Below, one piece after another: positions 725 through 47,712 of a stretch of 64,000 nucleotides of DNA (the first letter of the stretch is position 1; every line of letters begins with the position of its first letter). Location: IMG/VR virus record IMGVR_UViG_3300046507_000639, positions 1 through 64,000 of that record; one strand, 5' to 3'. The notes under the pieces were generated by a model. That model searched no databases, had not been told where the DNA came from, and saw only the letters and a program-made list of their open reading frames with translations. The stretch comes from a virus (Duplodnaviria; Heunggongvirae; Uroviricota; Caudoviricetes). The translations under genes and the position numbers were made by a program.

Positions 725-733
725 CCACTATTT

Positions 734-2614: not shown

Positions 2615-2855
2615 CGACGATCTTCGCCTTGACCGTGCAGCTGTAAGCCACGTTGCCGGCCGAGTCAGAGTCGGACGTCGCGACCGGCGAGGAAGCACAG
2701 TAGACCTTGTCCTCGTGAGCGGCGATGTGGTACTTGCCGAGGTGGTCAGCGCCGGCGACCGTCGCGACGCCGTAGATGAACGCGGCCGCGACCAGGAAGC
2801 CCTTCACGGGGATGTTGAAGAAACCCCAGTAGATGACTTTGAACGTCTTGTTCAT
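2604..2855 (-). CDS. hypothetical membrane/secreted protein
   Basis: N-terminal hydrophobic segment FLVAAAFIYGVATVAGA. Confidence 0.55.
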   Translation of the reverse strand: MNKTFKVIYWGFFNIPVKGFLVAAAFIYGVATVAGADHLGKYHIAAHEDKVYCASSPVATSDSDSAGNVAYSCTVKAKIVDVF

Positions 2856-4055: not shown

Positions 4056-4987
4056 TTCTTGTCTACCTCGATGAACGGTACGGCCGAGCCAGGCACCATC
4101 GTGGTCGGCAGGTTGCCGCTCCACTTCTCGGCCTTCGTGAGCTCGATGATGTTCGGGTTGTCCCGGAGGGCGTCACCCTTGGCACGGAGCGCCGAGGCTT
4201 CTGCCTCACCGATCGCCTTGATCGCGGTGGCCTGCGCGTCGCCTGCTACCTGGACCGCCTTGGCCTTCGCGGTGGCCTCTGCCAGCTGCGCGTCGGCGGC
4301 CGCCTGAGCGTTGATCACAGTGATCTTGGCCTGGACTTCCTGCTGCTGCCTCTGCTGCTCCAGCTTCTGGACCTCGACCTGAGCGGTCATGCGGGCCTCG
4401 ACTGACTTCTCGTAGGCGTCGCTGAAGTCGATGTTCTCGACCTGCACGCTGTCGATCTGCACGGGGCCGTCCATGCCGGCCTCGACTTCCTTCTGGACGT
4501 CGGCGTTGAACTGCGCGCGGTTCTGGATGACCGACACCGCGGTGTACTTGCCGAAGACAGTCTTGACGTCCTGCGGAGCGTGGCGGGCGATCAGTCGGCC
4601 CTCGAGGTTGTCGAGGTTCCCGTACTCAGAGTAGAGCTTGAGCGCGTCAGATGCCGGCACGTGCCAAGACACAGTCACGCGCATCGCGGCGGGCTGCTGG
4701 TCCTGTGAGTAGGCCTGCATCTCGGCGCGCTCTTCAGCACTGCACTGGGTGCCGGCGACGCAGGTCCAGTAGGTCACCTGCTGGGTGACCGGGACCTTCA
4801 CGACGCTCTCGAAGAAAGGTATCTTGAAGTGAAGCCCGGGCTCTGCAGTGGAGACGGCCAGACCATTGTGCAGGATGACGCCTCGCTCGCCCTGGTCGAT
4901 CGTGTAGAACGACCCGAACGAGAGCAACGCTATAGCAGCTGCGCCGGCGCAAAGCGCCACGAACCTCGGGTTGATTGTCTTGCTCAC
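4052..4987 (-). CDS. SPFH/band-7 (prohibitin/HflC-like) membrane protein
   Basis: N-terminal TM, then the SPFH core (GERGVILHNG..HFKIPFFE), then a long coiled-coil tail (Q/A/E-rich). Confidence 0.8.
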   Translation of the reverse strand: MSKTINPRFVALCAGAAAIALLSFGSFYTIDQGERGVILHNGLAVSTAEPGLHFKIPFFESVVKVPVTQQVTYWTCVAGTQCSAEERAEMQAYSQDQQPAAMRVTVSWHVPASDALKLYSEYGNLDNLEGRLIARHAPQDVKTVFGKYTAVSVIQNRAQFNADVQKEVEAGMDGPVQIDSVQVENIDFSDAYEKSVEARMTAQVEVQKLEQQRQQQEVQAKITVINAQAAADAQLAEATAKAKAVQVAGDAQATAIKAIGEAEASALRAKGDALRDNPNIIELTKAEKWSGNLPTTMVPGSAVPFIEVDKK

Positions 4988-5631
4988 TTAATGTCCTCTC
5001 TGTGAATGAAGAAGGTGTCCATCTTCGACGGCGCCAGCTCTCGGTAGCCCATCGGGTTCAGTAAGTCTCGTATCGAGCCGGAAGCCCTCTCCACGCCGAT
5101 GATCGGGTGGAACTCCTTGATGGTCTCGATAGCGCCAAGGAGCGCAAGGTACTCGTAGCCCTCGAGGTCGAGCCAGATGAGGTCGACCGGGACCCGCAGC
5201 TTGAACGCCTCGGAGTCGATGGTGGTCATCGGGACGTCGCCGTTCGGTGTGTCCACCACCTGGTGCATGCCGACGTTGTTCATCGTGAGCCGGTTCACTC
5301 CCACGAACTTGTGGGTGTCTCCCAGTGCAGAATTGGAGTACCACACGTTCGGCAGGCCCTCGCAGTTCATCTCGAGGAAGCTGAAGTTGATGGCGTCGGG
5401 CTCGAACGTGAGCACCTGGTCGTACATGCTCGACAAGAGAGCGGGGTACATGCCGCAGCACCCACCGGCCTGGATGACGCCCCGCTTCTTCTCGAAGGTC
5501 GAGATGAGGGGGCCGTGGCTCACTATCCAGTCGTCTACAGGTCCGTCCCAGGCTCCGTCGTCGGACTTAGGCCAGTACCATTTGACGAAGGGTGCGAGCC
5601 CCTCGTGGGTGCGTACGATCACGTCACTCAT
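4984..5631 (-). CDS. FkbM-family SAM-dependent methyltransferase
   Basis: VIQAGGCCGMY..FEPDAINFSFLEMN..DLIWLDLEGYEYLALLG matches FkbM-type MTase motifs. Confidence 0.55.
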   Translation of the reverse strand: MSDVIVRTHEGLAPFVKWYWPKSDDGAWDGPVDDWIVSHGPLISTFEKKRGVIQAGGCCGMYPALLSSMYDQVLTFEPDAINFSFLEMNCEGLPNVWYSNSALGDTHKFVGVNRLTMNNVGMHQVVDTPNGDVPMTTIDSEAFKLRVPVDLIWLDLEGYEYLALLGAIETIKEFHPIIGVERASGSIRDLLNPMGYRELAPSKMDTFFIHREDIK

Positions 5632-7362: not shown

Positions 7363-7437
7363 TGGCTGAGGGACCAGGGTTCGAACCTGGGCTTCACGGG
7401 TCAGAGCCGAGCGTACTGCCGGTTATACGATCCCTCA
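7363..7437 (-). tRNA. tRNA-Gln(CUG)-like, CCA encoded
   Basis: Acceptor TGAGGGA/TCCCTCA. T-arm CCAGG-TTCGAAC-CCTGG. Anticodon loop CTCTGAC. One mismatch in the anticodon stem. Confidence 0.5.
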
Positions 7438-7441
7438 AAAC

Positions 7442-7516
7442 TGGTACTCCTACTCAGAATCGAACTGAGTCATGCCGGTGTGTGATACCGGTGCCTTCCC
7501 ACCTGGCGCTAGGAGC
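7442..7516 (-). tRNA. tRNA-Val(CAC), CCA encoded
   Basis: Acceptor GCTCCTA/TAGGAGT. Anticodon arm CCGGT-ATCACAC-ACCGG. T-loop TTCGATT. Confidence 0.6.
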
Positions 7517-7517
7517 A

Positions 7518-7592
7518 TGGTACGTCTGCGTGGAATCGAACCACGTCTTGTCGCCGTGTCATGGCGATGCCTTCCCACCTGGCTCCAGACGC
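7518..7592 (-). tRNA. tRNA-Val(GAC), CCA encoded
   Basis: Acceptor GCGTCTG/CAGACGT. Anticodon arm TCGCC-ATGACAC-GGCGA. T-loop TTCGATT. Confidence 0.6.
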
Positions 7593-7603
7593 ACATTAAA
7601 ATT

Positions 7604-7676
7604 TGGTCGGGGTAAGAGGAATCGAACCTCTCCACCACGGCTCCGGACCGCAGTAAAGCACCAGCTAGTCTACCCC
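7604..7676 (-). ncRNA. tRNA-like gene with atypical anticodon arm (possible Pro-CGG, C33)
   Basis: Perfect acceptor CGGGGTA/TACCCCG and T-arm AGAGG-TTCGATT-CCTCT. Best anticodon helix has two G-U pairs and loop TCCGGAG. Confidence 0.35.
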
Positions 7677-7684
7677 GTCGTAGT

Positions 7685-7807
7685 CTATTTATTCCTGTTC
7701 TTCACCGACTTGACTACGTCGATGAGTACCATTACCGCCGCGATCGCAAGCGAGGGGACGCATATCGCGAGCAGCACGGCGACTGTGATCGACGATAGCG
7801 TGAACAC
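7685..7807 (-). CDS. micro-ORF, single-TM peptide (40 aa, GTG start)
   Basis: SD GGGGAGG sits 7 nt upstream of GTG. VFTLSSITVAVLLAICVPSLAIAAVMVLIDVVKSVKNRNK. Start overlaps the stop of 7810..8109. Confidence 0.45.
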   Translation of the reverse strand: MFTLSSITVAVLLAICVPSLAIAAVMVLIDVVKSVKNRNK

Positions 7808-7809
7808 GA

Positions 7810-8109
7810 TCAGTCCTCCCCGTCGAGCAGTGCGAGCAGCTTGTAGGCCAGCATCGCTTCGCCTTCAGTGATCCCGTAGTCAAAGCCGTCCGAGTAGACA
7901 TCGTCGGCGTTGCCGTACGAGACAGGAACACCGTCGCGGTCGAGACCGAAGTAGAAGGCGCCGACTTGGTCCTCAGCGAGGCCGTCCGGCAGTCCGCGCT
8001 CTTGGATGTACGTCGCGACTTGTGCTTCATACGTCGCGATCATTTTCTCGAGCTCAATCTTGAGTATCGAACTGATGTCACTGTTCATCGCAATGCTGTC
8101 GTCTTCCAT
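7810..8109 (-). CDS. hypothetical acidic protein
   Basis: 99 aa, D/E-rich. The overlapping Ser/Thr/Arg-rich ORF 7689..8030 is rejected. Confidence 0.6.
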   Translation of the reverse strand: MEDDSIAMNSDISSILKIELEKMIATYEAQVATYIQERGLPDGLAEDQVGAFYFGLDRDGVPVSYGNADDVYSDGFDYGITEGEAMLAYKLLALLDGED

Positions 8110-8127
8110 TCACTTCCTCCATAAAAT

Positions 8128-8203
8128 TGGTACTGGGCGCCTGGATCGAACAGGCTCCTCGCGGTTCACAGCCGCGCTTGCACACCAGCTACACTAGCCC
8201 AGC
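8128..8203 (-). tRNA. tRNA-His(GUG) lacking G-1 (U-1/A73), CCA encoded
   Basis: Acceptor GCTGGGC/GCCCAGT. Anticodon arm CGCGG-CTGTGAA-CCGCG. T-arm GCCTG-TTCGATC-CAGGC. Discriminator is A; the nucleotide 5' of G1 is U. Confidence 0.6.
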
Positions 8204-8400
8204 ATATTCTCATCGGCACCCGCGTGGCTGACCAGTCGGTCGAGCATCTCCAGGGGCCAGGTTCGACGCAGCAGTCCAGTAGACCTCTCCGTCAGCAGTT
8301 CAATAGTCTCGGTCTCTTCGTCTACGATGACGACGGCACTGAGGTGCTTGATCATCTCGTACGGGTAGAACTTTACGGCGTCCCACCGGGCCTTGTCCAT
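8194..8400 (-). CDS. hypothetical protein (start at MDKARW)
   Basis: ATGA coupling to 8403..8627. The 3' end overlaps the tRNA-His 5' end by about 10 nt. Confidence 0.4.
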   Translation of the reverse strand: MDKARWDAVKFYPYEMIKHLSAVVIVDEETETIELLTERSTGLLRRTWPLEMLDRLVSHAGADENMLG

Positions 8401-8402
8401 GA

Positions 8403-8627
8403 TCAGCACGTTCCGCACTTTATCACCCTCAGTATCTCTCGAGACGAGACCAGCTCGCACTTCGCGGTGATCTCGTCGATGCGTCTCTTGGGCACGTCGT
8501 AGTGAGGGAACTTTCCACCGTGGAACCAGGACCGGGAAATCCCGAGGTCCCTCGCCATCTCGTGGAGGTTCTCTACCGAGAACGGCTCGCAGACCAGGTG
8601 TCTCTTGCCGTCCGTCAGGTACCTCAT
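8403..8627 (-). CDS. hypothetical protein
   Basis: 74 aa ORF. Confidence 0.5.
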   Translation of the reverse strand: MRYLTDGKRHLVCEPFSVENLHEMARDLGISRSWFHGGKFPHYDVPKRRIDEITAKCELVSSREILRVIKCGTC

Positions 8628-8710
8628 CTCAAGAACGAGTCTAGCATGATCATCGCCAGAGCCCCATAGTGGATGATGAAGTTCTCGTGTATCGGTACGT
8701 AAAACTGCAT
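8624..8710 (-). CDS. micro-ORF (28 aa) MQFYVPIHENFIIHYGALAMIMLDSFLR
   Basis: Consensus promoter TTGACA-N17-TATATT (8735..8763), SD GGAGAAA, ATG, and a stop overlapping the next ATG (ATGA). Confidence 0.45.
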   Translation of the reverse strand: MQFYVPIHENFIIHYGALAMIMLDSFLR

Positions 8711-8734
8711 CACTCGTTTCTCCATTCTGGAACT

Positions 8735-8763
8735 AATATAACTCATTCTGAAATGATTGTCAA
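8735..8763 (-). promoter_or_regulatory. sigma70-type promoter (TTGACA-N17-TATATT)
   Basis: tgtcaa on the + strand at 8758-8763. Confidence 0.55.
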
Positions 8764-8945
8764 CCGATTTCTTCATCAGTTTCGAATGGAGTGATGATGA
8801 AGCCGAACTTCAACGGGTCGAACTCGTCGAAGACGTCTGCCATCGTGTCCGTGTCAAGGAACTTCTCGAAGTCAACGATGACTTCTTCCTTAGACTCGAG
8901 GTCCACGACTACGATCTGGACGCGCTTGCCCTTCCAGTGCGACAT
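8760..8945 (-). CDS. hypothetical protein
   Basis: 61 aa. SD GGAGAG. Confidence 0.55.
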   Translation of the reverse strand: MSHWKGKRVQIVVVDLESKEEVIVDFEKFLDTDTMADVFDEFDPLKFGFIITPFETDEEIG

Positions 8946-8966
8946 TCAACTCTCCATGTTAAGGGG

Positions 8967-9056
8967 TGGAGCACGCGACAGGACTCGAACCTGCATCAGC
9001 CTCACGGCCACTCCGTTACCTTTGTGCACGTTCGAAGCGTGCGGGGATACGCGTGC
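8967..9056 (-). ncRNA. tRNA-like RNA A (non-canonical; family of three)
   Basis: Perfect 7-bp acceptor GCACGCG/CGCGTGC. T-arm GCAGG-TTCGAGT-CCTGT. Discriminator U, then CCA. Positions 15-31 form the hairpin GCACG-CTTCGAA-CGTGC. No canonical D or anticodon arm. Confidence 0.4.
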
Positions 9057-9057
9057 A

Positions 9058-9137
9058 TGGAGGTCACGGCGGGACTCGAACCCGCATTTTCATCCATTAC
9101 CTAACTCGAGCTTCGCAAGCTCGGCGGTTACGTGACC
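9058..9137 (-). ncRNA. tRNA-like RNA B (same architecture as A)
   Basis: Acceptor GGTCACG/CGTGACC. T-arm GCGGG-TTCGAGT-CCCGC. U-CCA 3' end. Hairpin CGAGC-TTGCGAA-GCTCG at positions 15-31. Confidence 0.4.
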
Positions 9138-9142
9138 GTATG

Positions 9143-9171
9143 TGTCTATTTATTACAGATCGACGCGATTG
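9143..9171 (-). promoter_or_regulatory. promoter for tRNA-like RNAs B and A
   Basis: TTGACA-N17-TAAATA ends about 5 nt upstream of the RNA B 5' end. Confidence 0.45.
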
Positions 9172-9353
9172 TCAACGGGTTTCTTCATGTAGATCGAGAT
9201 GAGCTCGTGGAAGTCACCCTGACAGCTCTTCATCTTGTTGTACCGGTCGACGACGCCGTCGTGGGCCATCATGAACTTATCGGAGTCGCCGCTCTTGGCT
9301 ATTTCCATCAGCTTGATGAAGTCATCGGCGAGGAACACGAACGGTGCGGCCAT
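9153..9353 (-). CDS. hypothetical protein
   Basis: 66 aa ORF. Confidence 0.55.
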   Translation of the reverse strand: MAAPFVFLADDFIKLMEIAKSGDSDKFMMAHDGVVDRYNKMKSCQGDFHELISIYMKKPVDNRVDL

Positions 9354-9535
9354 CAGAGGTACATCGCTTTCTGCACGGCCTTGACCGCCTTGTCGGCTGC
9401 TTCTGCGCTGTCGAACTCACCCACGAAGTTCTCGAAGGTGACCTCGGTGCCCTCGAAGGCCGAGAACTTTCTGACGTGAGAGGTCACGAGGAACTTCCCG
9501 TGACTCTCTTGTATCTGGAACCAGGTCTTGCTCAA
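9353..9535 (-). CDS. hypothetical protein
   Basis: 60 aa ORF. Confidence 0.5.
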   Translation of the reverse strand: MSKTWFQIQESHGKFLVTSHVRKFSAFEGTEVTFENFVGEFDSAEAADKAVKAVQKAMYL

Positions 9536-9702
9536 TCGAAACGTCTCCTGACCAGGTCTTCAGCGCGGGACAGGGCTTCTTCGCGTGAACAGTACGTCGC
9601 GTTGAGGATCAGCTTGGCGTACATCTTCACGACGCCTGGGCGTGCCTTCGCCCAACTCTCGCGAGAATTCTTTTGAACCTCGTCTCGGAGGCCCTGCGAC
9701 AT
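9532..9702 (-). CDS. hypothetical protein (start at MSQGL)
   Basis: The Arg-rich N-terminal extension is rejected. Confidence 0.4.
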   Translation of the reverse strand: MSQGLRDEVQKNSRESWAKARPGVVKMYAKLILNATYCSREEALSRAEDLVRRRFD

Positions 9703-9710
9703 GACGGCAG

Positions 9711-9884
9711 TCACAGGAGCCCCTTCGGCATGTAAGGAACGAAGATGACTGTCTCTTCTCTGTCTTCGGTGTATCGGACGTCGACGGCGGTGTGCCATCT
9801 GCACTCTTCGCCGTGCTTCATGGCTCCGGACTCGTCTCTTTGGGAACCGCAGTGTGAACAGGACTCACGGGGAACTTTCTTCAC
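9711..9884 (-). CDS. small Cys/His-containing protein (57 aa, GTG start)
   Basis: SD AAGGAG sits 5 nt upstream of GTG, with a GTGA overlap to the YqeY gene stop. CSHCG..C.WH pattern. Confidence 0.4.
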   Translation of the reverse strand: MKKVPRESCSHCGSQRDESGAMKHGEECRWHTAVDVRYTEDREETVIFVPYMPKGLL

Positions 9885-10303
9885 AGGAACTCCTTAGCGA
9901 TCTTCGACGCGAGGGTGCCGTCGTACAGGCCGGCGAAGTTGTCCTTGAGGTGCTTCATCATGAGGCCCAGGTTCGACTCGTCGAGCTCGGTGAAGATCTC
10001 ACGGATCTTCTCCTCGGTCAGCTGAGTCGGCAGGTACTTCTCGATGATCCCCTTCTCGAACTCGACCATCTTGATCGCGTTCTCTGGTAGGTTCTCGATC
10101 GCGAGCAGCTCAGCGTTCTTCTTGAGGTACGACTTGAGCACAGTCACGACGTGCTGCTCGGTCAGTTCGACTCTGCCTTCTGCCGTGATGGCAGCAGACT
10201 CGATCGTGCCGATCAGGGCCGACAGGAACGCCGCGGTCGACGACTCACGAGCCTTGCGGGCTGCCAGGAAGTCGTCCTTTATCGTCTGCAGTAGATCGCT
10301 CAT
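9881..10303 (-). CDS. GatB/YqeY-domain protein
   Basis: 140 aa. FLAARKARE..LSALIGTIESA..YLKKNAELLAIENLPENAIKMVEFEKGIIEKYLPTQLTEEKIREI fits the YqeY family pattern. Confidence 0.65.
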   Translation of the reverse strand: MSDLLQTIKDDFLAARKARESSTAAFLSALIGTIESAAITAEGRVELTEQHVVTVLKSYLKKNAELLAIENLPENAIKMVEFEKGIIEKYLPTQLTEEKIREIFTELDESNLGLMMKHLKDNFAGLYDGTLASKIAKEFL

Positions 10304-10526
10304 GTTTTCTCTTCTTTATCTGTGCGTTGATGATCAGGGCGGTGTATCGACCCTCGTGCTCGACCGTTCTGGGCTCCTTACCCGTGAACACCGCGTACTC
10401 GTTCATCGGGTACTCCACGCCGTCTTCGATGACGGTGCCGACGTAGCCGTTGAGGATGCACTCGAGGCGAAAGTCGAGTATCTTCAGGACTTCACCGTAG
10501 GTGCAATTGAGCGCGTAGGTCTTCAT
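10245..10526 (-). CDS. hypothetical protein
   Basis: 93 aa. The 3' end overlaps the YqeY gene by about 59 nt. Confidence 0.4.
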   Translation of the reverse strand: MKTYALNCTYGEVLKILDFRLECILNGYVGTVIEDGVEYPMNEYAVFTGKEPRTVEHEGRYTALIINAQIKKRKHERSTADDKGRLPGSPQGS

Positions 10527-10690
10527 CTCTTCTTCCTGGGTCGCGTGTCAGTCAGTCCCGGACACAGGTCAAACAGGAGCTCGCAGAAGACCGCGAGCGG
10601 CTTCAGCAGGCCGAACGTCAGCCCAAAGAGCACGATCCGGAACGGGATGAACGGGAACTTCCACCAGTTGGCCTTGAGGAACTCGATCAC
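10523..10690 (-). CDS. small membrane protein (55 aa, GTG start)
   Basis: VIEFLKANWWKFPFIPFRIVLFGLTFGLLKPLAVFCELLF. GTGA overlap with the upstream stop. Confidence 0.4.
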   Translation of the reverse strand: MIEFLKANWWKFPFIPFRIVLFGLTFGLLKPLAVFCELLFDLCPGLTDTRPRKKR

Positions 10691-11244
10691 TTGGCGTAGT
10701 CCCACATGATCGGCAGCTCGCCGACGGTGACGGTCGCGCTCTTCTTGAAGACGAGCAGCTTCTTGTTCATGTCTTTGCGGAGGATCGCGTCCACCTCGGC
10801 CTTGAGCGCAGCGGAGTTGCACATCTTCTCGACCTTGTAGCTCGTGGCCTCGATGATGATCATGTCGAGCTCGGCCTGCGACTTGGCAGGCTCGGGCGCC
10901 GGCGTAGCTCGGGACACGACTCGAAAGAACTTGGCCGATAGGAACGGAGTCTCGATGTACGCTTCTAGCTGCGCGCGGTCGAACTTGTTGAGCTTCTTCT
11001 GCTTGCCCCGGAAGATGAGGTTGCCTGTAGGACCGCGTCCGACCTCGATCACCTCGAGCGGTTGACCCTTGTTGAAGGAGTCGTACTGCTTGTAGCCCTG
11101 GTAGTTGAACTTGACGACGTCACCGACGGCGAGCTCACTGATGTCGTCGAAGTCTCCGACGGAGACCGCGTTCACGAGTGCATTCATATCATCATCCTCA
11201 AAATTGGAAAAAAAGTCCCAGACCCACTCATCACTGTCGTTCAT
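10687..11244 (-). CDS. hypothetical protein
   Basis: 185 aa. SD GGAG. Confidence 0.65.
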   Translation of the reverse strand: MNDSDEWVWDFFSNFEDDDMNALVNAVSVGDFDDISELAVGDVVKFNYQGYKQYDSFNKGQPLEVIEVGRGPTGNLIFRGKQKKLNKFDRAQLEAYIETPFLSAKFFRVVSRATPAPEPAKSQAELDMIIIEATSYKVEKMCNSAALKAEVDAILRKDMNKKLLVFKKSATVTVGELPIMWDYAK

Positions 11245-11262
11245 CGTGTTCTCCGGGAAATT

Positions 11263-11349
11263 TGGTGCGCGCAGAGGGACTCGAACCCTCGGTGGGCTTA
11301 CGCCATCCGGTTAAGAGCCGGAACCTATCGCCGCTAAGGTGATACGCGC
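11263..11349 (-). tRNA. type-II-like tRNA (long variable arm), anticodon loop CTCTTAA, identity uncertain
   Basis: Acceptor GCGCGTA/TGCGCGC. T-arm GAGGG-TTCGAGT-CCCTC. Anticodon arm TCCGG-CTCTTAA-CCGGA. Discriminator A, then CCA. Confidence 0.45.
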
Positions 11350-11574
11350 TTAGACTTTGTTGAACCTCTGTGCGTCGTCATCCGACACGCGGAAGTCCAA
11401 GATGACTCGACCGGTGGCCTTCGACACCCGCTTGAGGTGTGCGTTGGCTTCGATCAGGACCTCCTCGTGGGACTTACCGACGTTCAGGACGTTGAAGTAG
11501 TCCGTGCCAGCGATGTTCCCCGGGAACTCGAGGTCCTTGTAGGAGTATACGAAGAGTGTGTACTTTGCGTTCAT
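11350..11574 (-). CDS. hypothetical protein
   Basis: 74 aa. Promoter 11603..11631 and SD GGAAAGGG. Confidence 0.6.
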   Translation of the reverse strand: MNAKYTLFVYSYKDLEFPGNIAGTDYFNVLNVGKSHEEVLIEANAHLKRVSKATGRVILDFRVSDDDAQRFNKV

Positions 11575-11602
11575 GATGAAGTCCCTTTCCTATCGTAGTT
11601 CC

Positions 11603-11631
11603 ATCTTAAATGGAACCGACCGGTTTGTCAA
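11603..11631 (-). promoter_or_regulatory. sigma70-type promoter (TTGACA-N17-TAAGAT)
   Basis: tgtcaa on the + strand at 11626-11631. Confidence 0.5.
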
Positions 11632-11647
11632 CTACATCTTTAAATTT

Positions 11648-11731
11648 TGGTGGGCATGGTGGGACTCGAACCCACACGCGCTAGGCACCAGGCTCTCGAC
11701 CTGGCAAGGCTACCAATTTCATCACACGCCC
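11648..11731 (-). tRNA. tRNA-Leu(GAG)-like, type II, CCA encoded (C33 in anticodon loop)
   Basis: Acceptor GGGCGTG/CATGCCC. T-arm GTGGG-TTCGAGT-CCCAC. Anticodon arm CCAGG-TCGAGAG-CCTGG. Confidence 0.45.
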
Positions 11732-11743
11732 AATTATCGCCAA

Positions 11744-11811
11744 CGTCACGACGGGATTCGAACCCGCGTTTCCCCCTGAACGGGGGCGTTCTCTCCGCTA
11801 AACTACGGGAC
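11744..11811 (-). ncRNA. degenerate tRNA-Glu(UUC)-like element, no encoded CCA
   Basis: T-arm CGGG-TTCGAAT-CCCG. Acceptor has 2 mismatches (GTCCCGT/TCGTGAC). Anticodon-like hairpin CCCC-CGTTCAG-GGGG. Short D region. Confidence 0.3.
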
Positions 11812-11904
11812 TCAGGAGTCGGTGTTCCCGGCAAGGACCGCTTTCCCCTGTGGCTCAACCTACGGGATCGGCTTGCCGACCTACCCGCCTGGGTCTACTA
11901 AACT

Positions 11905-38234: not shown

Positions 38235-38603
38235 TTAGTTGACGGTCTTCTCGTAGTAGAGGATGGTGGCGTTCTGCTGGCGAATGTAGCGGAGCAGCTC
38301 GGCCTGGTTGTTCAGCAGCTTCTTGAAGTCCTCGGGCGAGACACCGTAGACGACGAAGTCCTTGTTGTTCGCGAGGAACTTCTTCTTGAAGTCGTTGTAG
38401 TTCTTGTCAGTGATGACGTACCACTTCGGGTTCTTCAGCTGGACTGCGCGTGGGTGTGGCTGTATCGTCACGTTCCGGGAGATCGGAGTCGTGGTGACCT
38501 GTACCTTAGCGACCTGACCGGTCGAGGCGCAGTTACTTAGCGACAGGGACAGGAGCGCCAGAAGCAGAAGTGAGCGAGTCATTGGAAGCACCGTATTCTT
38601 CAT
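38235..38603 (-). CDS. o-spanin-like lipoprotein (overlaps the i-spanin 3' end)
   Basis: Signal peptide plus LSLSNC lipobox-like. 71-nt out-of-frame overlap with 38533..38958. Confidence 0.5.
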   Translation of the reverse strand: MKNTVLPMTRSLLLLALLSLSLSNCASTGQVAKVQVTTTPISRNVTIQPHPRAVQLKNPKWYVITDKNYNDFKKKFLANNKDFVVYGVSPEDFKKLLNNQAELLRYIRQQNATILYYEKTVN

Positions 38604-38958
38604 TGATATCTTTCTCGACCGCGTCGGGGTCTGCGAGGGACTGCGCCACGAGGTCCTGGTCTTTGTTCTTCGAGACCGTAGCGAAGTTCTGGGCCTCGGC
38701 GTCCGACAGGGACTTCGAGAGCGCCAGGTTGGCGTCGGCCTGCTTGGCGGCCTGGTCTTTCTGGTACTGGATCGTCTGCTCGTTGAGCGAGACGGCCAGG
38801 TTGAGCTTGTCCACGTTGGACTGGAGCTGTGCCTTGTCGGCAGTCAGCTGTGCGACCTCAGCGTCCATAGTCTTCTTGTAGACGTAGAAGCCTACGCCTG
38901 AGAGGAGGATGAGGACCGCGAGGCCGGCGACTAGGTAGGACTGGATGCCGGTGAACAT
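38533..38958 (-). CDS. i-spanin (Rz-like)
   Basis: N-terminal TM, then a coiled-coil periplasmic domain. Sits immediately downstream of the endolysin. Confidence 0.6.
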   Translation of the reverse strand: MFTGIQSYLVAGLAVLILLSGVGFYVYKKTMDAEVAQLTADKAQLQSNVDKLNLAVSLNEQTIQYQKDQAAKQADANLALSKSLSDAEAQNFATVSKNKDQDLVAQSLADPDAVEKDINEEYGASNDSLTSASGAPVPVAK

Positions 38959-39783
38959 TTACTTCTTCATCTCCGCGTACGTCTTGGGACCGACGACTCC
39001 GTCTGCGACCAGTCCGTTCCTGGTCTGGAACGCCTTGACGGCAGCAGCCGTGCCCGGGCCGAACTTGCCGTCGGCTTCGATGCCGAGCAGCGTCTGGATC
39101 TCTTCTACCGCCGGGCCCGAGGAGCCGATCGTCAACGTCGTGAACGCCGGGCTGACGGGGGCCGGGGCAGCGCCGAGGACGGCCATGCCGCGGGCGTAGT
39201 ACTTCTTACGCTCGTCTAGCCCGTTAGTGCCGCCGTTGACGGCCTTCGAGCAGCCCACGATGTCGTGTGAGTCCGCGAAGCGGTTCAGGTTGTTAACCTT
39301 CCAGAACCAAGCGGCTGAGCGGGCAGCGCCCTCAGCGGTCTCGAGGTAGGAGGGGTCTTCCGTCAGGTCCATGCCGATCTCTTCGCCGAACGAGACGTAG
39401 TTGTTCTTGCCGGTGATCTGGATCAGGCCGCGGCCGCGAAACTTCCAGCCGTCCTGAGAGGCCTCGTTGCCGTTGCCCATGCGGTTGGCGTAGACTCGGG
39501 AAGCGATCTTGATAGGCTGCTTCGCGTGCGCGTTGGCCTCGGAGGCGTTACGGTAGTACTTCGGGAACGTCCTGAGCAGGCCGTCTGCCGAGTAGTTGAG
39601 GTTCTCGACGACGACCGAGAGAGCTCCCGACTCCGTCATGACCTGGGCCAGGAACATCACCTGGCGGTCAGAAGTGTCGATACCGAACTCGTGCATCGCG
39701 TTAAAGATTGGGTCGACGTAGGCTGCGATCTTAGACGAAGACGCGCCCGCCACGACTTTAGTGAACTGGTCTCTCGTGAGCAT
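38959..39783 (-). CDS. endolysin: GH19 chitinase-like muramidase plus C-terminal PG_binding_1 domain
   Basis: FLAQVMTESG matches the GH19 catalytic region. C-terminal IQTLLGIEADGKFGPGTAAAVKAFQTRNGLVADGVVGPKTY. Confidence 0.8.
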   Translation of the reverse strand: MLTRDQFTKVVAGASSSKIAAYVDPIFNAMHEFGIDTSDRQVMFLAQVMTESGALSVVVENLNYSADGLLRTFPKYYRNASEANAHAKQPIKIASRVYANRMGNGNEASQDGWKFRGRGLIQITGKNNYVSFGEEIGMDLTEDPSYLETAEGAARSAAWFWKVNNLNRFADSHDIVGCSKAVNGGTNGLDERKKYYARGMAVLGAAPAPVSPAFTTLTIGSSGPAVEEIQTLLGIEADGKFGPGTAAAVKAFQTRNGLVADGVVGPKTYAEMKK

Positions 39784-41916: not shown

Positions 41917-42972
41917 TCACTCTTCTTCGCTCGAGGGAGAGTCCTCTTCGAGGATCTTCCCGGTACCGATGGAGTACTTGGCCTTAATATAATCGGCCAT
42001 GTCGGTGTTTGTCAACACTTCTTTCCAGAAATCTCCGTTGTTGACGATCTGCTTCTCGCGGTACTTCTCACCCACGAGCTCGCCCGTCGTGCGGTCGACT
42101 AGCTGGTACCAGCCGTTCGACGGCTTGCCGACGTACTGGCCCTCGAGCGCGAGGTCGAGGAAGCCCGACCACTTCATGATGCCGTTCTCGTAGGAGACGC
42201 TGATCGGTATCTTGGACTTCTCCTTGACGTAACGGCTCTTCTCGATGTTGATCACGAAGTGCCATCCCTTGATCTCGGTGCCTTCCTTGTCCTGCTGACG
42301 ACCGATGATCCAGATGTTGTCGGCGGAGTAGTAGATGCCCGTGCCGCCCGACACGACGTCCTTCGAGTAGAGCTCTTGGGTCTTGTACGTGTGGTTCACC
42401 ACGATCATCGGGATGTCCTTGATCGTGAGGTGCGGCGTGATCATCCTGAAGAGTGACTTCAGCTGCTTCGCGCGAGACATGTCTGCCACGCTCTTGCCCT
42501 CGAGCGCGTCCTCGACTTCCTTCTTGGAGGCCAGGTTGCCGATCGAGTCGACCATGATGAAGACCTTGTCCTTGCGGTCGAGGCCGTCGAGCTGCGCCAT
42601 GATGTCGAACTTGAGCTGCTCGATGTTCAGCAGCGGCGTGTGGACGACCTTGTCGGGGTCGATGCCAAAGCTCGAGATGTACGACTCGGGGGTGCCGAAC
42701 TCAGAGTCGTAGAACAGGATGATGCCGTCGGAGTACTGCTTCAGGAAGGCCGAGGCCATGAGCAGCGTGTAGGCGGTCTTGAAGTGTTTGGAGGCGCCGG
42801 CGATGACCGTGAGGCCGGGAGTGATGCCGCCGTCCATGCGGCCCGAGAGGGCGACGTTGATCATCGGCACTTGCGTCGGGATCATGTCCTTGTGACCGTA
42901 GATCTTCGACTCTGAGAGGATGGCGGTCTCTTTGATGGTGGAGTTCTTAAGCAGCTTATCCCTGAGGCTCAT
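41917..42972 (-). CDS. uvsX: RecA/UvsX-like recombinase
   Basis: Walker A region GLTVIAGASKHFKT. RecA-core architecture. Confidence 0.75.
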   Translation of the reverse strand: MSLRDKLLKNSTIKETAILSESKIYGHKDMIPTQVPMINVALSGRMDGGITPGLTVIAGASKHFKTAYTLLMASAFLKQYSDGIILFYDSEFGTPESYISSFGIDPDKVVHTPLLNIEQLKFDIMAQLDGLDRKDKVFIMVDSIGNLASKKEVEDALEGKSVADMSRAKQLKSLFRMITPHLTIKDIPMIVVNHTYKTQELYSKDVVSGGTGIYYSADNIWIIGRQQDKEGTEIKGWHFVINIEKSRYVKEKSKIPISVSYENGIMKWSGFLDLALEGQYVGKPSNGWYQLVDRTTGELVGEKYREKQIVNNGDFWKEVLTNTDMADYIKAKYSIGTGKILEEDSPSSEEE

Positions 42973-43141
42973 TATCTTCCTTGTATCTCTTCAGTTCTTC
43001 CTGGTATATGTATACCCGGCGCCCGCCCACGCAGTTGCACCGGTCTTCTCCGCAGTACGCGAAGCACAGCTTCTCGACCAGCTCTCCCGTGAGGAGCATC
43101 TGGTCGATCCGCGCGTCTGTTATGGCGTCCAGGTCACGCAC
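42956..43141 (-). CDS. small Cys-rich protein
   Basis: CFAYCGEDRCNC. Confidence 0.4.
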   Translation of the reverse strand: MRDLDAITDARIDQMLLTGELVEKLCFAYCGEDRCNCVGGRRVYIYQEELKRYKEDNEPQG

Positions 43142-43757
43142 CGTGTGGCTCCGCGATGCGGGTTCGCTCCAGCACGTTGTAGTGGCGCAGGAACCTGTTG
43201 AGGAACGCCGCCTTGGCCCGCTCGGGCGTCCAGCACTCGATCTCGACCCCGAGCGGCTCGAAGCCGATGAGGTACCAGTCCTGGTCGCATTCGTACATCA
43301 GCGCGGCCTTCTCGTCCACGATGATGCTGTTGTCGAGCTGCTTCACGCGTACGTGGAACGGGAACGGCAGCCCGAACTTCTTGAAGATGACCCGCTCGAT
43401 GTTCTCCTCGATTCCCCTGTACTCCGTGAGGTACGGCTTGACCGGGCGCGGCACGTCCACGAGGTACGCCTCGGCGGCGTCGTGCATCAGGGCAGCAAAC
43501 TTGTGCTCGTCCTCGATCGCGTCGTGGATGTGACAGCAGTGCTCAGCGATGGAGTAGAAGCGCATCGAGTGGCCGGCGTACCGACACTGGTGAGCGAGCG
43601 AGTGGGCGATGTCGCCGATGTGCACGTCCTCGGGCCTCGGGTCCAACGGGTAGAAGCACCCGCCGGAGTAGACCTGCATCCAGTTTCCGATGCGGTCAGA
43701 ATAGTCTTTGGTCATGAGAAAAACTCCTCTAACGACAGCCGCTTCTCGTACGACCAA
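43134..43757 (-). CDS. HD-domain phosphohydrolase (5'-deoxynucleotidase-like)
   Basis: H..H...HD.AE motifs (HSLAHQ, HDAIE, MHDAAE). Confidence 0.6.
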   Translation of the reverse strand: MVVREAAVVRGVFLMTKDYSDRIGNWMQVYSGGCFYPLDPRPEDVHIGDIAHSLAHQCRYAGHSMRFYSIAEHCCHIHDAIEDEHKFAALMHDAAEAYLVDVPRPVKPYLTEYRGIEENIERVIFKKFGLPFPFHVRVKQLDNSIIVDEKAALMYECDQDWYLIGFEPLGVEIECWTPERAKAAFLNRFLRHYNVLERTRIAEPHGA

Positions 43758-44686
43758 TCGATCTCTTTCAGGATGATGTTGAGTGGGCTTATGAACGTCT
43801 TGTCGAACTGCGTCTCGTAGTCGATGTACTGCTCGAGGTTGAGGCTCGGCGGCAGGGACGACGAGACCGCGAAGACGTTCTCACGGATCGGGTTCGGGAC
43901 CTTCATGTACGTGAACTTGATCTTGTCGCCGTCGTTGATCAGCGGGAACTTCTTGTCGAGGCCGTGCTCCTTGATGGTCGCGTTGTAGACCAGCGCGGCC
44001 CGGACGTGCATCGGGGTGCCCTTGCGGTAGACGGTGTGCTTGTCGGCGTAGTCACGCATCCCGTTGACGCCTGACGGCTTGCCGACCTCCTCGAAGCGCA
44101 TCTTCGAGAACTCGTCCCGGCACTTCGCGACGTACTCGTGGAGCTGCTCCTCGGTGCCGTTCATGATGATGCTGATCGACTTCTTGATGTACTCGCGGCA
44201 GACGTACGGGGTGTTGGACCGCACGGCCTCGATGCCAGTCATCTTGACCTTGGGCTCCTTGTACCGCACGTTCTCGGAGTCCCACACGTTCATGACGTAC
44301 TTCTTCTTGCCCGTCCAGATGGCGACGTCCGCGATGTTCTCGCGCTTCATCTTCATCTTCTGGGAGAACGCGTTCATCATGTCGGCGAGCTCTTGGTACG
44401 ACTCTTCGACGTAGGGCTCGAGGACTTCACGACAGAACTTGTCCACGAAGTTGACGACCTTCTCCTTGTCGGAGGTCTCGCCGAAGACTTTCTTGACGAG
44501 CAGGTCGAGCTTGATGTAGTTGGAGTCTGTGTCGACCGCGAGGACGTAGTCAACTCCGTCCGTCTTGAGCACCCGGTTGAGGTACTCGTTGAACTTCTTC
44601 GCGATCCACTTGATCGAGAGCTGGCCGGACAACGTGATGCTCTCGGCCAGGACGTCTGAGTAGTACAGGAAGTACTGGTTACTCAT
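43712..44686 (-). CDS. family-B DNA polymerase, C-terminal part (43B-like; palm motif C plus thumb)
   Basis: Motif C LAVDTDSNYI and a KKYVMNVWDSE..KMTGIE region. The frame stays open and coding-like upstream to 44871, including motif B KKILLNSCYG, but has no ATG/GTG/TTG. Confidence 0.8.
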   Translation of the reverse strand: MSNQYFLYYSDVLAESITLSGQLSIKWIAKKFNEYLNRVLKTDGVDYVLAVDTDSNYIKLDLLVKKVFGETSDKEKVVNFVDKFCREVLEPYVEESYQELADMMNAFSQKMKMKRENIADVAIWTGKKKYVMNVWDSENVRYKEPKVKMTGIEAVRSNTPYVCREYIKKSISIIMNGTEEQLHEYVAKCRDEFSKMRFEEVGKPSGVNGMRDYADKHTVYRKGTPMHVRAALVYNATIKEHGLDKKFPLINDGDKIKFTYMKVPNPIRENVFAVSSSLPPSLNLEQYIDYETQFDKTFISPLNIILKEIDWSYEKRLSLEEFFS

Positions 44687-44837
44687 AGCGCCGTAGCAGG
44701 AGTTCAGCAGGATCTTCTTGGCGAGCTGGATGTTGTGATACTTAGAGACCTTGACTTCAGTCTCACGGCGCAGAGTTTTGAGCTCTGCGTCGGTCAGAGT
44801 TGAGTAGTCGATGGGGAATGTCCTTGAGAAAGATCTA

Positions 44838-44866
44838 GTATAAACTATTCCGTCGAGAATGTAAAC
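44838..44866 (-). promoter_or_regulatory. sigma70-type promoter (TTTACA-N17-TATACT) inside the polymerase-splitting insert
   Basis: Points into the 43B reading frame. An AAGGA SD-like element follows. Confidence 0.5.
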
Positions 44867-45033
44867 AGTTTAGTAGCACTTCGCGATCTGGATGGTCTGA
44901 CTGCGAGTGGACTCAGACGTCGTCTTGAGCTCTGCGAGTGCCTGCTCACACTTCTCTTGAGAAGAGAAAGTGGTGGACACGTTCACGTAACCGCCGGCCG
45001 CCCAGTTGAACGCCACGAACACTAGCGTGTAGA

Positions 45034-45573
45034 TCATCCGAACGTCTCCTCGATCAGCTTCTTGTGCTCATTGATCACGTCCTCGAGCAGTACCGGCGCG
45101 TAACTCGTCTTCTCGACCGACACGTTGACGTGACGCGTCGTCGGTGCGTCGTTCTGGTGGATGTGGCCGTGGACGTTGTACGTCACCTTGTAGAGGGACG
45201 ACTCGTGCTGCGGCGTGTGGCTGAGCAGCAGGTCGAGCTCCGGCACGAAGCGCCACATCATGATCTTCTGGAAGTGACGCTGCAGGACGGGGCACTTGCC
45301 GTCGTCGTGGTTGCCCAGGATGAGACGCTTCTTCCCGTTCAGCCGAGCGAGAATTTTATCAGCATCATCGCGATGACCAAAGTAAACGTCCCCAAGGTGA
45401 TAAACATGGTCGCTCACTCCTACGACTCGGTTCCAGTTCTCGATCATCGTCTCGTTCATGTGCTCGACGGACTCGAAGAGCTCGCCTCTGAACTTGATGT
45501 GGTGTCCGTCCTCGAAGTTGAGGATGTTCTTGTGGTTGAAGTGCGTGTCGCTTACGACGAAAAGGTCTCTCAC
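45034..45573 (-). CDS. metallophosphoesterase inserted between the two DNA polymerase cistrons
   Basis: DTHFNH, GDVYFGH, GNHDD, HGHIH motifs. Its ATG overlaps the 43A stop (ATGA). Confidence 0.7.
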   Translation of the reverse strand: MRDLFVVSDTHFNHKNILNFEDGHHIKFRGELFESVEHMNETMIENWNRVVGVSDHVYHLGDVYFGHRDDADKILARLNGKKRLILGNHDDGKCPVLQRHFQKIMMWRFVPELDLLLSHTPQHESSLYKVTYNVHGHIHQNDAPTTRHVNVSVEKTSYAPVLLEDVINEHKKLIEETFG

Positions 45574-47060
45574 GTGAGTATGCCTCTCTTCTTCATCTCG
45601 GCCTCTATGGCCTCTAGGTTCTGTTTCTCTTCGATCATCATGGACTTGAACTTCGATCGGTCGTTGTACATCTGCTCCATGAGGACCGGCACGAAGCCCT
45701 GCTTCTCACGGGAGTAGAGGGCGCCGCCGGCAGTCAGTGCGAGGTTGGCCTCCCTCAGCTGGGCCTGCCTCTCGTCGTTCATGAAGCCGTTGATGATCCG
45801 GTCCGGTGAAGTTTCGTCCGACGGCAGCTCGTCCAGCACGTCGACGAACGTCTCGGGCGATATGTTGTACTGCATGATCAGGTGCGGGTACAGGGAGTTC
45901 AAGTCGAAGCTCGCCACCCACTCATGTCGGCCCGTGATGGGCTCCTTGACGTACCCGCCCGCGATCTGCTTCTCCTTCATGGAGTGCTTCTTGGGCGGCG
46001 ACACGATGCCCTGTCCGAGCAGGTAGTTGTGCATGATGATCTCCCAGATCTTCACCGACGTGAACGTGTCAGCGAAGTTGACCAGGGAGTCGTACGCGAT
46101 GGCGAATACCTGCTCGATGAACCCGAGCTTGTCGTTGATCCGCGACACCAGCATGACGTCGTGGATGTTGTAGTCCATGTACTTCTTGAAGTCGTTCTTG
46201 TAGAGGTCGTTGAGCGACTCGTACTCGGAGTAGTCCAGCTTCTTCTCGCCGATCACCACGAACGCGATGTTGTCGAGTCGGTAGGACTCCTCGTTGGAGA
46301 ACGAGAACTTCTTGTAGAGCGGGAGGTAGTCGAGGGACGTGATGCCCACGAGCTCGTACAGGGTCTTGTTGGACCCGTGGTAGAACACCGTGCTCTCTTT
46401 GATCTTCTTCCACGGCGAGAGCAGCAGGACGGAGTCGTCGCCGAGCAGCTTCTTGACGCGGTTCACGATGTACGGGATGTCGAAGTAGTCGATGTTCCAG
46501 CCGGTCACCACGTCGGGGTCGAAGTTGAGCCAGATCTGGATGAACTTGTCGAGGAGGTCGTTCTCGTTCTTACACAGGATGTAAGTGACGTTCGGCAGGC
46601 TCGGCTCGTACGGCATGAGCCCCAGCGAGTAGACCTTCTTGTTCTTCTCGATGGTGATCGCGGTGATCGGCCAGTCGGCCTTCCAGGGGTCGGGGAACTC
46701 ATCGGCTCCGACTTCGATGTCGACGTTGACCACGCTGATCTGCTTCGGGTCGTAAGGCACGTCCCGGTACTCGTCATAGAGGTACACGTACGGCCAGTTA
46801 GTCGACCCGTAGACCTCGAAGTTGTGGACCTCGTCGTACCTCTCGACGAACTCCTTGGCGTCGTAGATAGAGTCGAAGTCGACCTTCTCTACTGGCTGGC
46901 CTCGGAGGGTCCTGTAGCTCGTCGTCGACTCGAGGTTCCTCGAGCGAGTGAAGAGGTACGGCTTGTAGGGGATAGACTCTTGAAAGCGGCGGCCGTTGTT
47001 CCATCCACGGACGCGTACTCGTCCGCCCCAGTGGGCGACGTTCGTATAAAATTTTAGCAT
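45570..47060 (-). CDS. family-B DNA polymerase, N-terminal part (43A-like; 3'-5' exonuclease plus motif A)
   Basis: Exo I VDIEV. Motif A DLNSLYPHLI. The polypeptide ends ...KKRGILT before motif B. Confidence 0.8.
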   Translation of the reverse strand: MLKFYTNVAHWGGRVRVRGWNNGRRFQESIPYKPYLFTRSRNLESTTSYRTLRGQPVEKVDFDSIYDAKEFVERYDEVHNFEVYGSTNWPYVYLYDEYRDVPYDPKQISVVNVDIEVGADEFPDPWKADWPITAITIEKNKKVYSLGLMPYEPSLPNVTYILCKNENDLLDKFIQIWLNFDPDVVTGWNIDYFDIPYIVNRVKKLLGDDSVLLLSPWKKIKESTVFYHGSNKTLYELVGITSLDYLPLYKKFSFSNEESYRLDNIAFVVIGEKKLDYSEYESLNDLYKNDFKKYMDYNIHDVMLVSRINDKLGFIEQVFAIAYDSLVNFADTFTSVKIWEIIMHNYLLGQGIVSPPKKHSMKEKQIAGGYVKEPITGRHEWVASFDLNSLYPHLIMQYNISPETFVDVLDELPSDETSPDRIINGFMNDERQAQLREANLALTAGGALYSREKQGFVPVLMEQMYNDRSKFKSMMIEEKQNLEAIEAEMKKRGILT

Positions 47061-47066
47061 TGACTG

Positions 47067-47096
47067 ATTCTATACCGATCTCAAGAAAATGTCAAC
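47067..47096 (-). promoter_or_regulatory. promoter TTGACA-N17-TAGAAT giving a leaderless DNA polymerase mRNA
   Basis: The -10 ends 6 nt before the ATG at 47058-47060. Confidence 0.5.
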
Positions 47097-47543
47097 TCAA
47101 TTGAACATGAGTCGACGAACGTATCCGCTGTAATGCGGGTGCGGCACAAAATGTCCTTCTTCCTGGTTGAGGACCAGGCCTGACACCTTCGTCGCTCCCG
47201 TGAAGTACAGGTAAGTTGCGTTCACGTCGGCGTCAAACTGGACGTCGATCACATCGCGGGCGGCGAGCTTGAAGAGGTCTGCGATAAACGTCGAGTTCGT
47301 GATGACAGTCCTCGCAGGAGCTTGACGGTACCTCGTCGTCATCTCTTTACCGAGTCGCAGTACATCCATGCACGTCTCGACGTTCACTTCCTCAACCCCT
47401 TCGAGCGAGTTGATTAGCTCGGCGACGCTGCCGAATGTCTGCGAGACAGGGAAAGACTGCACGACGAAGGAGAGCTCTTCCGTCCCTCCTTCGCTCGATC
47501 TCGACTCGTACGCGAGGTAGAACCACTTCTTCACGTCGCTCAT
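47097..47543 (-). CDS. hypothetical protein (start MSDVKKW)
   Basis: The Arg/Pro-rich N-terminal extension of the ORF is rejected. Confidence 0.5.
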   Translation of the reverse strand: MSDVKKWFYLAYESRSSEGGTEELSFVVQSFPVSQTFGSVAELINSLEGVEEVNVETCMDVLRLGKEMTTRYRQAPARTVITNSTFIADLFKLAARDVIDVQFDADVNATYLYFTGATKVSGLVLNQEEGHFVPHPHYSGYVRRLMFN

Positions 47544-47712
47544 TCTCCACTCCTCGACGCGTCTCGCGCGAGCCTCCGTATGTCGCAGCGTGACACTCCC
47601 ATGTCTCGGAGGTCGCGGTCGCTCAGGGAATCGAGCTCCGAGACGGTCTTCCTGTACTTGCGGTATCGTTCTATGCGTCCTAGCATGGGGACTTCCTTTC
47701 GATAAATAGCGT

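Follow-up and report, generated by a model that had tools for sequence, protein, structure and literature searches.

How can a phage obtain a complete DNA polymerase when the gene lies in two pieces, and when the downstream piece has no canonical start codon ahead of a catalytic motif? The question is raised by a 64,000-nucleotide (nt) stretch of DNA from an uncultured T4-like tailed phage represented in metagenomes only (Caudoviricetes; IMG/VR record IMGVR_UViG_3300046507_000639, positions 1 to 64,000), referred to here as the window, in which a family B polymerase of the T4 gp43 type is split into two cistrons, 43A and 43B, with all the relevant genes on the minus strand. An earlier note on this DNA had proposed either that the 3′ half is a gp43B-like subunit with a non-canonical start (ATT, ATC or CTG) or that RNA splicing or translational bypassing joins the halves. 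Our analysis supports the first proposal, with ATC at 44812..44810 as the codon, and speaks against the second, as no intron matching Rfam was found, the insert is coding, and relatives start the second half independently. We consider it likely that the locus encodes a two-subunit polymerase split in the fingertip, with 43B made from its own promoter and Shine-Dalgarno (SD) sequence at an AUC codon.

A family B polymerase split in the fingertip

The genes that make up the interrupted locus, with their window coordinates, are the following, where aa stands for amino acids and ORF for open reading frame.

45570..47060, minus strand: 43A-like cistron, 496 aa, with the exonuclease motifs, motif A and the first finger helix; PF03104, and PF00136 positions 12-146.
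45034..45573, minus strand: calcineurin-type metallophosphoesterase, 179 aa, GTG start; phrog_547, E 1e-46.
44870..45037, minus strand: 55-aa ORF with a hydrophobic N-terminus, ending ...AKCY*; ATGA overlap with the phosphoesterase stop.
43712..44812, minus strand: 43B-like cistron, 366 aa if started at ATC, with the second finger helix, motifs B and C and the thumb.

Between them, the two cistrons carry every motif of a T4 gp43/RB69-type family B DNA polymerase for which we looked, Exo I to III and A, B and C. The exonuclease motifs of 43A align to those of RB69, namely VDIEV (Exo I, DxE), TGWNIDYFDIPY (Exo II, Nx3FD) and YNIHDV (Exo III, Yx3D), its PF03104 match has an E value of 6e-21, and its motif A reads FDLNSLYPHLI (DLNSLYPHLI at 45905..45876). 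Motif B is found in 43B as KKILLNSCYG (44719..44690) and motif C as VDTDSNY, within LAVDTDSNYI at 44542..44513. The earlier note had described a polymerase interrupted between motifs A and B, with motif C inside the ORF 44686..43712 and motif B in the same frame upstream of its first ATG, and all of these placements were found as described.

Alignment to RB69 and T4 gp43, which the earlier note had suggested, maps the break to the variable fingertip between the two long finger helices, at RB69 residues ~501 to ~528-554. 43A aligns to residues 2-501 of RB69 gp43, and the match of 43B covers residues 554-901 of RB69 gp43 and, beginning at residue 4 of 43B, residues 528-897 of T4 gp43. On the full-length profile phrog_262 (856 positions), 43A covers 6-497 and 43B covers 498-851, and PHROGs holds a separate family for each half (phrog_2062 for N-halves, phrog_1918 for C-halves). 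In 129 related environmental loci gene 43 is one continuous ORF, in which residues ~483-494 of 43A abut residues ~2-21 of 43B in frame. As these contiguous relatives join the edges of both halves, nothing is missing from the enzyme of the window.

The halves are 757 nt apart. 43A ends in ...EAEMKKRGILT* with a TGA stop, and the phosphoesterase gene, the 55-aa ORF and a 57-nt spacer follow before 43B, leaving only 57 nt non-coding. The phosphoesterase had been thought to begin at an ATG overlapping the 43A stop (ATGA), but its start codon is GTG, and the two genes overlap by GTGA (45573..45570); that earlier description also lacked the conserved 55-aa ORF. Across the junction, five further contigs, obtained from as many other sequencing runs or samples, match the window at 100% identity, so the split is not an assembly artefact. 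Samples that yielded matching contigs are SRR26077930, SRR26076590, SRR26076633 and JGI 3300046457, 3300046474 and 3300046694.

The closest relative is a 126-kb IMG/VR contig (L001) with 79% aa identity and the order N-half, an extra 80-aa ORF, phosphoesterase, small ORF, 56-nt spacer and C-half. The split arrangement is common to L001 and L157-L170, with varying cargo, and the more distant split contigs share 52-63% aa identity in the C-half. The 43A stop is conserved after ...KKRG(x)3 in all split relatives, and all long split contigs have the gene order 43A, cargo, 43B, then UvsX and a DnaB-type helicase, some with an ORF of HD-phosphohydrolase size after 43B. Among the best 120 protein matches to the C-half, 88 are of stand-alone size (355-395 aa), although some of them may be fragments. 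In our search for closer relatives, no cultured phage exceeded ~66% identity at the nucleotide level; the nearest are cyanophage, Stenotrophomonas and Sinorhizobium myoviruses at ~52-66%. Judged by these comparisons, the split polymerase is real and old, and is shared across relatives. The ratio of nonsynonymous to synonymous substitution rates (dN/dS) between the window and L001 is 0.24 for the whole of 43B and 0.23 for 43A, which places both halves under equal purifying selection, consistent with their association into an active polymerase.

Other interruptions were observed among the polymerases of related loci. In L169/L170 (2344..5164; contigs of up to 191 kb), the fingertip-split polymerase consists of 487 aa, a 65-aa ORF and 387 aa, where 43B has a 20-residue N-terminal extension (MGYLIGG...), and many stand-alone C-halves in Tara and ENA data are of this type. 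L063 (1075..4310) has a second split site, with an N-part of 430 aa that ends shortly past motif A, a free-standing HNH-endonuclease-like ORF (2371..2955) and a 452-aa C-part with its own ATG; similar gaps are present in L065 and L043, and the L063 split, which gave no Rfam intron match, looks like one associated with a homing endonuclease. L061 (~4110..5110) and L075 (~202..1226) have an in-frame insertion of ~1 kb near residue 190 of the polymerase N-half that may be an intein.

The start of the C-terminal half

When 43B is called from its first ATG (44686..43712), the product has 324 aa and motif B is lost. Upstream of that ATG the frame stays open, as the earlier note had observed, back to a TAA at 44872..44870, which is the stop codon of the 55-aa ORF, and these 61 codons contain no ATG, GTG or TTG. 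The elements on which our reading of the start is based are as follows.

44810..44812, minus strand: ATC, the most likely initiation codon of 43B; it aligns with Met1 of homologues started at ATG or TTG, and the coding signature begins here.
44821..44825, minus strand: AAGGA, putative SD, 8 nt upstream of ATC (9 nt in L001).
44837..44865, minus strand: TTTACA-N17-TATACT, predicted 43B promoter; 10 of 12 consensus matches, member of a repeated promoter family.

Positional homology points to ATC as the most likely start. Seven related split loci have a 43B with its own ATG or TTG right after the preceding stop codon, at the ATC position or a few residues away; stop and start pairs among them read TAA|ATG (L161), TAA|TTG (L164), TGA|TTG (L157 and L158), and TAAT|ATG and TAAC|ATG (L165 and L166). 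The stand-alone homologues P0002 (M-D-L-S-K-L-T-N-E-E-L), P0007 (M-D-F-S-S-L-S-N-D-E-L) and P0008 (M-D-L-A-T-Y-T-D-E-Q-L) can be set against I-D-Y-S-T-L-T-D-A-E-L in the window, so that ATC falls on their Met1, and P0002, P0004, P0007 and P0008 all begin M-D-(L/F) opposite the I-D-Y of the window.

L001 also has ATC, preceded by an in-frame TAA 8 codons upstream (TAA CTT CAG CTA GGA CAT ACT CCC ATC). It has Gln at the position of ATG 44686, and its next canonical start is a GTG inside motif C. In L001, therefore, no canonical start would give a functional protein, and of the near-cognate codons only ATC is positioned so that the product would bear motif B. The 42 codons from ATC to the first ATG show a dN/dS of 0.16 at a dS of 0.87 between the window and L001; they are as constrained as the rest of the polymerase (0.23-0.24) and are therefore probably translated. 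Upstream of ATC, neither the peptide nor the reading frame is conserved between the two genomes, and four blocks are identical in both, TTTACA, TATACT, AGGACAT and CCC-ATC, with 5 nt between AGGACAT and ATC in the window, against 6 nt in L001. Conservation of this kind is the mark left by a promoter followed by a ribosome-binding site and a start codon. The marks by which an AUH start (H = A, C or U) can be recognized in sequence are all present: SD spacing, no usable canonical start, positional homology and the coding signature.

The promoter and the AAGGA element had both been noticed before; AAGGA was found at 44825..44821, and the promoter is present with its coordinates shifted by one, at 44865..44837 instead of 44838..44866. 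Its hexamers are identical in L001 and its spacer has diverged. A scan of the whole window for TT(T/G)ACA-N17-TATAnT with at most 1 mismatch returned 12 matches to the TTKACA-N17-TATANT pattern, all on the minus (coding) strand, against 0.03 expected, so the match upstream of 43B is not a chance one. The first bases of the -35 elements (minus strand) are at 8763, 14389, 18204, 23694, 25743, 30360, 35780, 36223, 44865, 48528, 49767 and 63889, to which 47095 can be added. Most members have an SD and an ATG within ~15-35 nt, and from its sequence the family looks like the early promoter set of the phage. In the other copies an SD comes after the -10, and an ATG after a further 6-9 nt; the 43B copy is built likewise, except that ATC stands where they have ATG.

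43A also has a predicted sigma-70-type promoter, the one at 47095.

47067..47095, minus strand: TTGACA-N17-TAGAAT, predicted 43A promoter; 11 of 12 consensus matches.

Its -10 ends 6 nt before the ATG at 47060, with no SD. The polymerase mRNA had been described as apparently leaderless, and we can bear this out as geometry only: the 6-nt spacing recurs in L161 (~3880..3923; TTGACC-N17-TACATT, 6 nt, ATG), and L157 and L158 have ordinary SD-led 43A starts.

How well alternative explanations account for the motif B-bearing segment can be judged from the same comparisons. One of them keeps 43B as a separate subunit and places its start at another near-cognate codon, ATT (44860), ATA (44848) or CTG (44797). 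The window frame is indeed open for 19 codons upstream of ATC and holds both ATT and ATA, and CTG initiates about as well as AUC in E. coli (10.1101/063800). However, in L001 the frame is closed by the TAA 8 codons before ATC with no near-cognate codon between, the CTG of the window is CTC, and in both genomes the SD is 8-9 nt from ATC, exactly where the homologues start. Moreover, the ATT and ATA of the window lie inside or between the promoter hexamers and would thus be absent from the transcript of that promoter. Although it survives better than the other alternatives, we regard this one as improbable.

Very unlikely is a 43B produced as a fusion by read-through of the TAA of the 55-aa ORF, or by long-range termination-reinitiation. 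In the window, a single TAA is all that interrupts the frame running from the small ORF through the 57-nt spacer into 43B, and the 43B start of relatives directly follows the previous stop, so that the ancestral state looks like translational coupling. In L001, however, the spacer of 56 nt puts the small ORF in a different frame from 43B, and a further TAA, in the frame of 43B, stands in the way; the stop itself differs (TAA against TGA), and the spacer peptide is not conserved. TAA is also the least leaky stop codon, which counts against read-through, and reinitiation would still require ATC.

That the halves are joined into one polymerase, either by a group I or II intron carrying the phosphoesterase and the small ORF or by translational bypassing, we find hard to believe. 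It would explain why no canonical start precedes motif B, and T4-type phages do carry self-splicing group I introns, with bypassing known from T4 gene 60; a group I intron is also said to have been reported by Petrov in 2010 in gene 43B of Aeromonas phage 25. Searches with intron covariance models, as the earlier note had recommended, gave no Rfam match at the gathering threshold in the whole window, none at E<=10 over 44500..45900, and none at gathering in L001 and five other interrupted loci. Of the 757 nt only 57 are non-coding, the rest being two ORFs conserved as protein. The cargo differs among relatives, yet all of them start 43B independently, with ATG or TTG at the homologous codon, and the conserved 43A stop after ...KKRG(x)3 and the promoter and SD directly before ATC also argue against joining.

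Scarcely credible, finally, is a decaying or truncated 43B that starts at ATG 44686 without motif B, with replication left to another polymerase: gene callers did choose exactly this ORF (P0001, 324 aa), but the 42 codons upstream encode the invariant motif B at a dN/dS of 0.16, L001 has Gln at the ATG position and no canonical start until motif C, the whole of 43B is as constrained as 43A (0.24 and 0.23), and inspection of parts of the window, short of a search of the whole 64 kb, revealed no second polymerase gene. The alternatives set aside (ALTERNATIVES) are thus an intron, TAA read-through, a start at ATG 44686 and other near-cognate codons.

Several points weigh against a two-subunit enzyme with an AUC start. 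The start codon was assigned by comparative genomics, and ATC is present in two genomes only, where, at a dS of ~0.6-0.9, the retention of a single base says little about selection. In E. coli, the one host in which it was measured, AUC initiates poorly. Other near-cognate codons are available in the window (CTG at codon 6 downstream, ATT and ATA upstream), although they are not conserved in L001. The activity of the 43B promoter is predicted from consensus and family membership, and assembly of the two halves of this phage is argued by analogy. Initiation at AUC in E. coli reaches 1-2% of that at AUG, and the product has an N-terminal Met (10.1101/063800), so initiation at ATC would be feasible but weak.

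The ATC arrangement was found in one other phage only (L001/L168, the same contig) by an IMG/VR protein-pattern scan, a metagenome scan, a 5.8-billion-protein search and a degenerate junction DNA pattern in IMG/VR. Within the window, a scan of the long open frames rich in G+C at third codon positions (GC3) for a coding stretch before the first canonical start gave no other convincing case, and ATC looks like a gene-specific feature and not a general property of translation in this phage. The best other candidate for a non-canonical start, at 38843, proved to be an overlapped spanin gene pair; weaker candidates lie at 40466 and 2803. In the predicted RNA, the SD and ATC are part of a 5′ stretch that stays unpaired, with a hairpin after it (z = -2.65 for the window, -1.1 for L001), but the structure is not clearly conserved and we made no use of it.

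Two observations stand beside the scan. The window has a cluster of nine tRNA genes at 7363..11813 (minus strand; Gln, Val x2, Pro, His, Arg, Lys, Leu, Glu), none of them an initiator. The lysis cassette at 39783..38235 (minus strand) holds a 274-aa endolysin-like ORF (39783..38959), a 141-aa membrane-anchored ORF (38958..38533) and, partly overlapping the latter, a 122-aa lipoprotein with a lipobox (38603..38235); on inspection of their sequences, the 141-aa and 122-aa ORFs look like an i-spanin/o-spanin pair.

Based on these comparisons, we propose that 43A supplies the N-terminal domain, the exonuclease, palm motif A and the first finger helix, and that 43B supplies the second finger helix with motif B, which binds deoxynucleoside triphosphates, palm motif C and the thumb. 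By analogy with the polymerases of phages 44RR and 25 and with split Pfu, the two would assemble non-covalently through the finger helices and the shared palm into an active enzyme. 43B would be transcribed from its own early-type sigma-70 promoter with its own SD, and AUC 44812..44810 would most likely be decoded as formylmethionine by the initiator tRNA. In the lineage of the window and L001, a promoter cassette may have been inserted between the previous stop and the 43B start, replacing translational coupling. We speculate that the weak AUC may offset the strong private promoter, keeping 43B roughly matched to 43A.

Cargo between the halves and neighbouring genes

The closest solved structure to the phosphoesterase is Aquifex aq_1665 (1xm7, E 2e-9); the window protein has no Pfam match, and apart from phrog_547 and aq_1665 only a sub-threshold PdeM match was found. 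Its dN/dS against L001 is 0.33. Homologues lie between the polymerase halves in L001, L157-L160 and L164-L167, and the order 43A, phosphoesterase, 43B is kept across phages that share only ~50-70% protein identity, whereas the flanks retrieved for the 129 relatives whose polymerase is unsplit (<=6 kb on each side) contain no homologue. This pattern could mean that the phosphoesterase works together with the split polymerase, as an accessory subunit with nuclease or phosphodiesterase activity, and that the weak AUC tunes the stoichiometry of three parts. The small subunits of archaeal PolD (DP1) and of the B-family polymerases of eukaryotes, which have a phosphoesterase domain, would be the parallel. 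We give this reading little credence. More simply, the phosphoesterase would be cargo that has lodged at a permissive site, given that what other split relatives carry there is unrelated: L161-L163 have an Fe-S-biosynthesis-like protein and a 58-aa ORF, and the marine cyanophage-like L169 and L170 a single 65-aa ORF.

The 55-aa ORF has homologues of 55-60 aa in L001 (5786..5944) and L164 (701..883), and the hydrophobic N-terminus and the ...KCY-stop ending are kept in all three; no family match was found in Pfam or PHROGs. Between the halves of the window there is no homing endonuclease of the HNH or GIY-YIG kind, the cargo being the phosphoesterase (phrog_547) and the 55-aa ORF, so the locus lacks the mark of a homing-endonuclease-mediated split of the mobE/seg type, in contrast to L063 with its HNH ORF. 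An intein was also rejected: 43A is closed by a TGA, each inserted ORF either is in another frame or has a stop of its own, and no Hint or endonuclease domain was detected with Pfam or PHROGs. In L157 (5414..5931, a metagenome-assembled sequence from NCBI), the phosphoesterase match is broken into two parts that differ in frame, owing either to a sequencing error or to a frameshift in a pseudogene.

Downstream of 43B, a 193-aa HD-domain protein is encoded at 43715..43134 (minus strand), its ATG overlapping the 43B stop (ATGA); it belongs to phrog_318, deoxyribonucleoside 5′-monophosphate phosphatase, and has a weak YfbR-like Pfam match. UvsX is next, at 42972..41917. L157, L158 and L164 have ORFs of comparable size (178-193 aa) after 43B, whereas L161 and L166 have none there. 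Upstream of the polymerase lies a 48-aa YjiS-like ORF (DUF1127, PF06568) at 47686..47540 (minus strand), and the same Pfam match is found upstream of the polymerase in L157, L158 and L166.

Implications and comparison with known systems

Gene callers truncated 43B in both genomes, since the true start would not be ATG, GTG or TTG: in the window it was called at 324 aa (P0001, a 'hypothetical protein' of JGI) with motif B lost, and in L001 at 275 aa (P0005) with motifs B and C lost. The same annotation error probably hides other genes in metagenomic phage genomes. In L157, the caller took the second TTG of 43B, though one TTG directly follows the preceding TGA. If confirmed, the ATC of 43B would be an AUC start that occurs naturally, and has been kept in evolution, on a protein essential for replication, and it would make a tractable case in which to ask whether weak initiation serves to balance the subunits of a split enzyme. 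Our findings also indicate that the fingertip-split polymerase is common in environmental T4-like phages, beyond a few Aeromonas and Acinetobacter phages, and that the break site is a landing pad for varied cargo genes; the accepted working of the polymerase is unchanged by them.

Passages in PMC3061061 and PMC2988022, citing Petrov 2006 (J Mol Biol 361:46) and 2010 (J Mol Biol 395:457), describe natural fingertip splits of gp43 in Aeromonas phages 44RR, 31, 25 and 65 and in Acinetobacter phage 133, with the cistrons from 2 bp to ~3 kb apart, and a passage in PMC2988022 has gp43A and gp43B of phages 25 and 44RR co-purifying as an active enzyme. The window shares with these the polymerase family, the break site, the two cistrons and the distribution of the motifs, A in 43A and B and C in 43B. 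It belongs, however, to a different and distant T4-like lineage, its cargo is a metallophosphoesterase and a small ORF instead of an untranslated linker or a homing endonuclease, and its 43B has a private promoter and an apparent AUC start. We know of no AUC start in the published 43A/43B cases.

Family B polymerases made of two non-covalent fragments exist outside phages. In Methanothermobacter thermautotrophicus, according to the account of Kelman 1999 given in PMC3061061, the break is in the palm, unlike that of the window, and the genes are 85 kb apart. An engineered fingertip-split Pfu polymerase keeps full activity (PMC3061061), and its break, like that of the window, is near the fingertip, but the construct is artificial and AUGA-coupled.

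With regard to the start codon, the closest parallels are E. coli infC and pcnB, which are initiated at AUU (10.1101/063800). As in the window, an important gene has an AUH codon behind a normal SD, and there the weak codon lowers or regulates output. The window differs in that the codon is AUC and not AUU, the gene is a phage replication gene, and no regulatory loop like IF3 autoregulation has been shown. To our knowledge, those two AUU genes are the only confirmed non-canonical starts in E. coli.

The nearest comparison is with the split relatives themselves (L157-L170; P0002-P0008 and P0097), which share with the window the synteny (YjiS-like gene, 43A, cargo, 43B, UvsX, DnaB-type helicase) and the break region. 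Their 43B starts at an ATG or TTG right after a stop codon, suggesting translational coupling, whereas the window and L001 have a promoter-bearing spacer of 56-57 nt and ATC. Taken together, the split family B polymerase itself is a known arrangement, and it is in its lineage, its cargo, the private promoter and the apparent AUC start that the window differs from the cases described so far.

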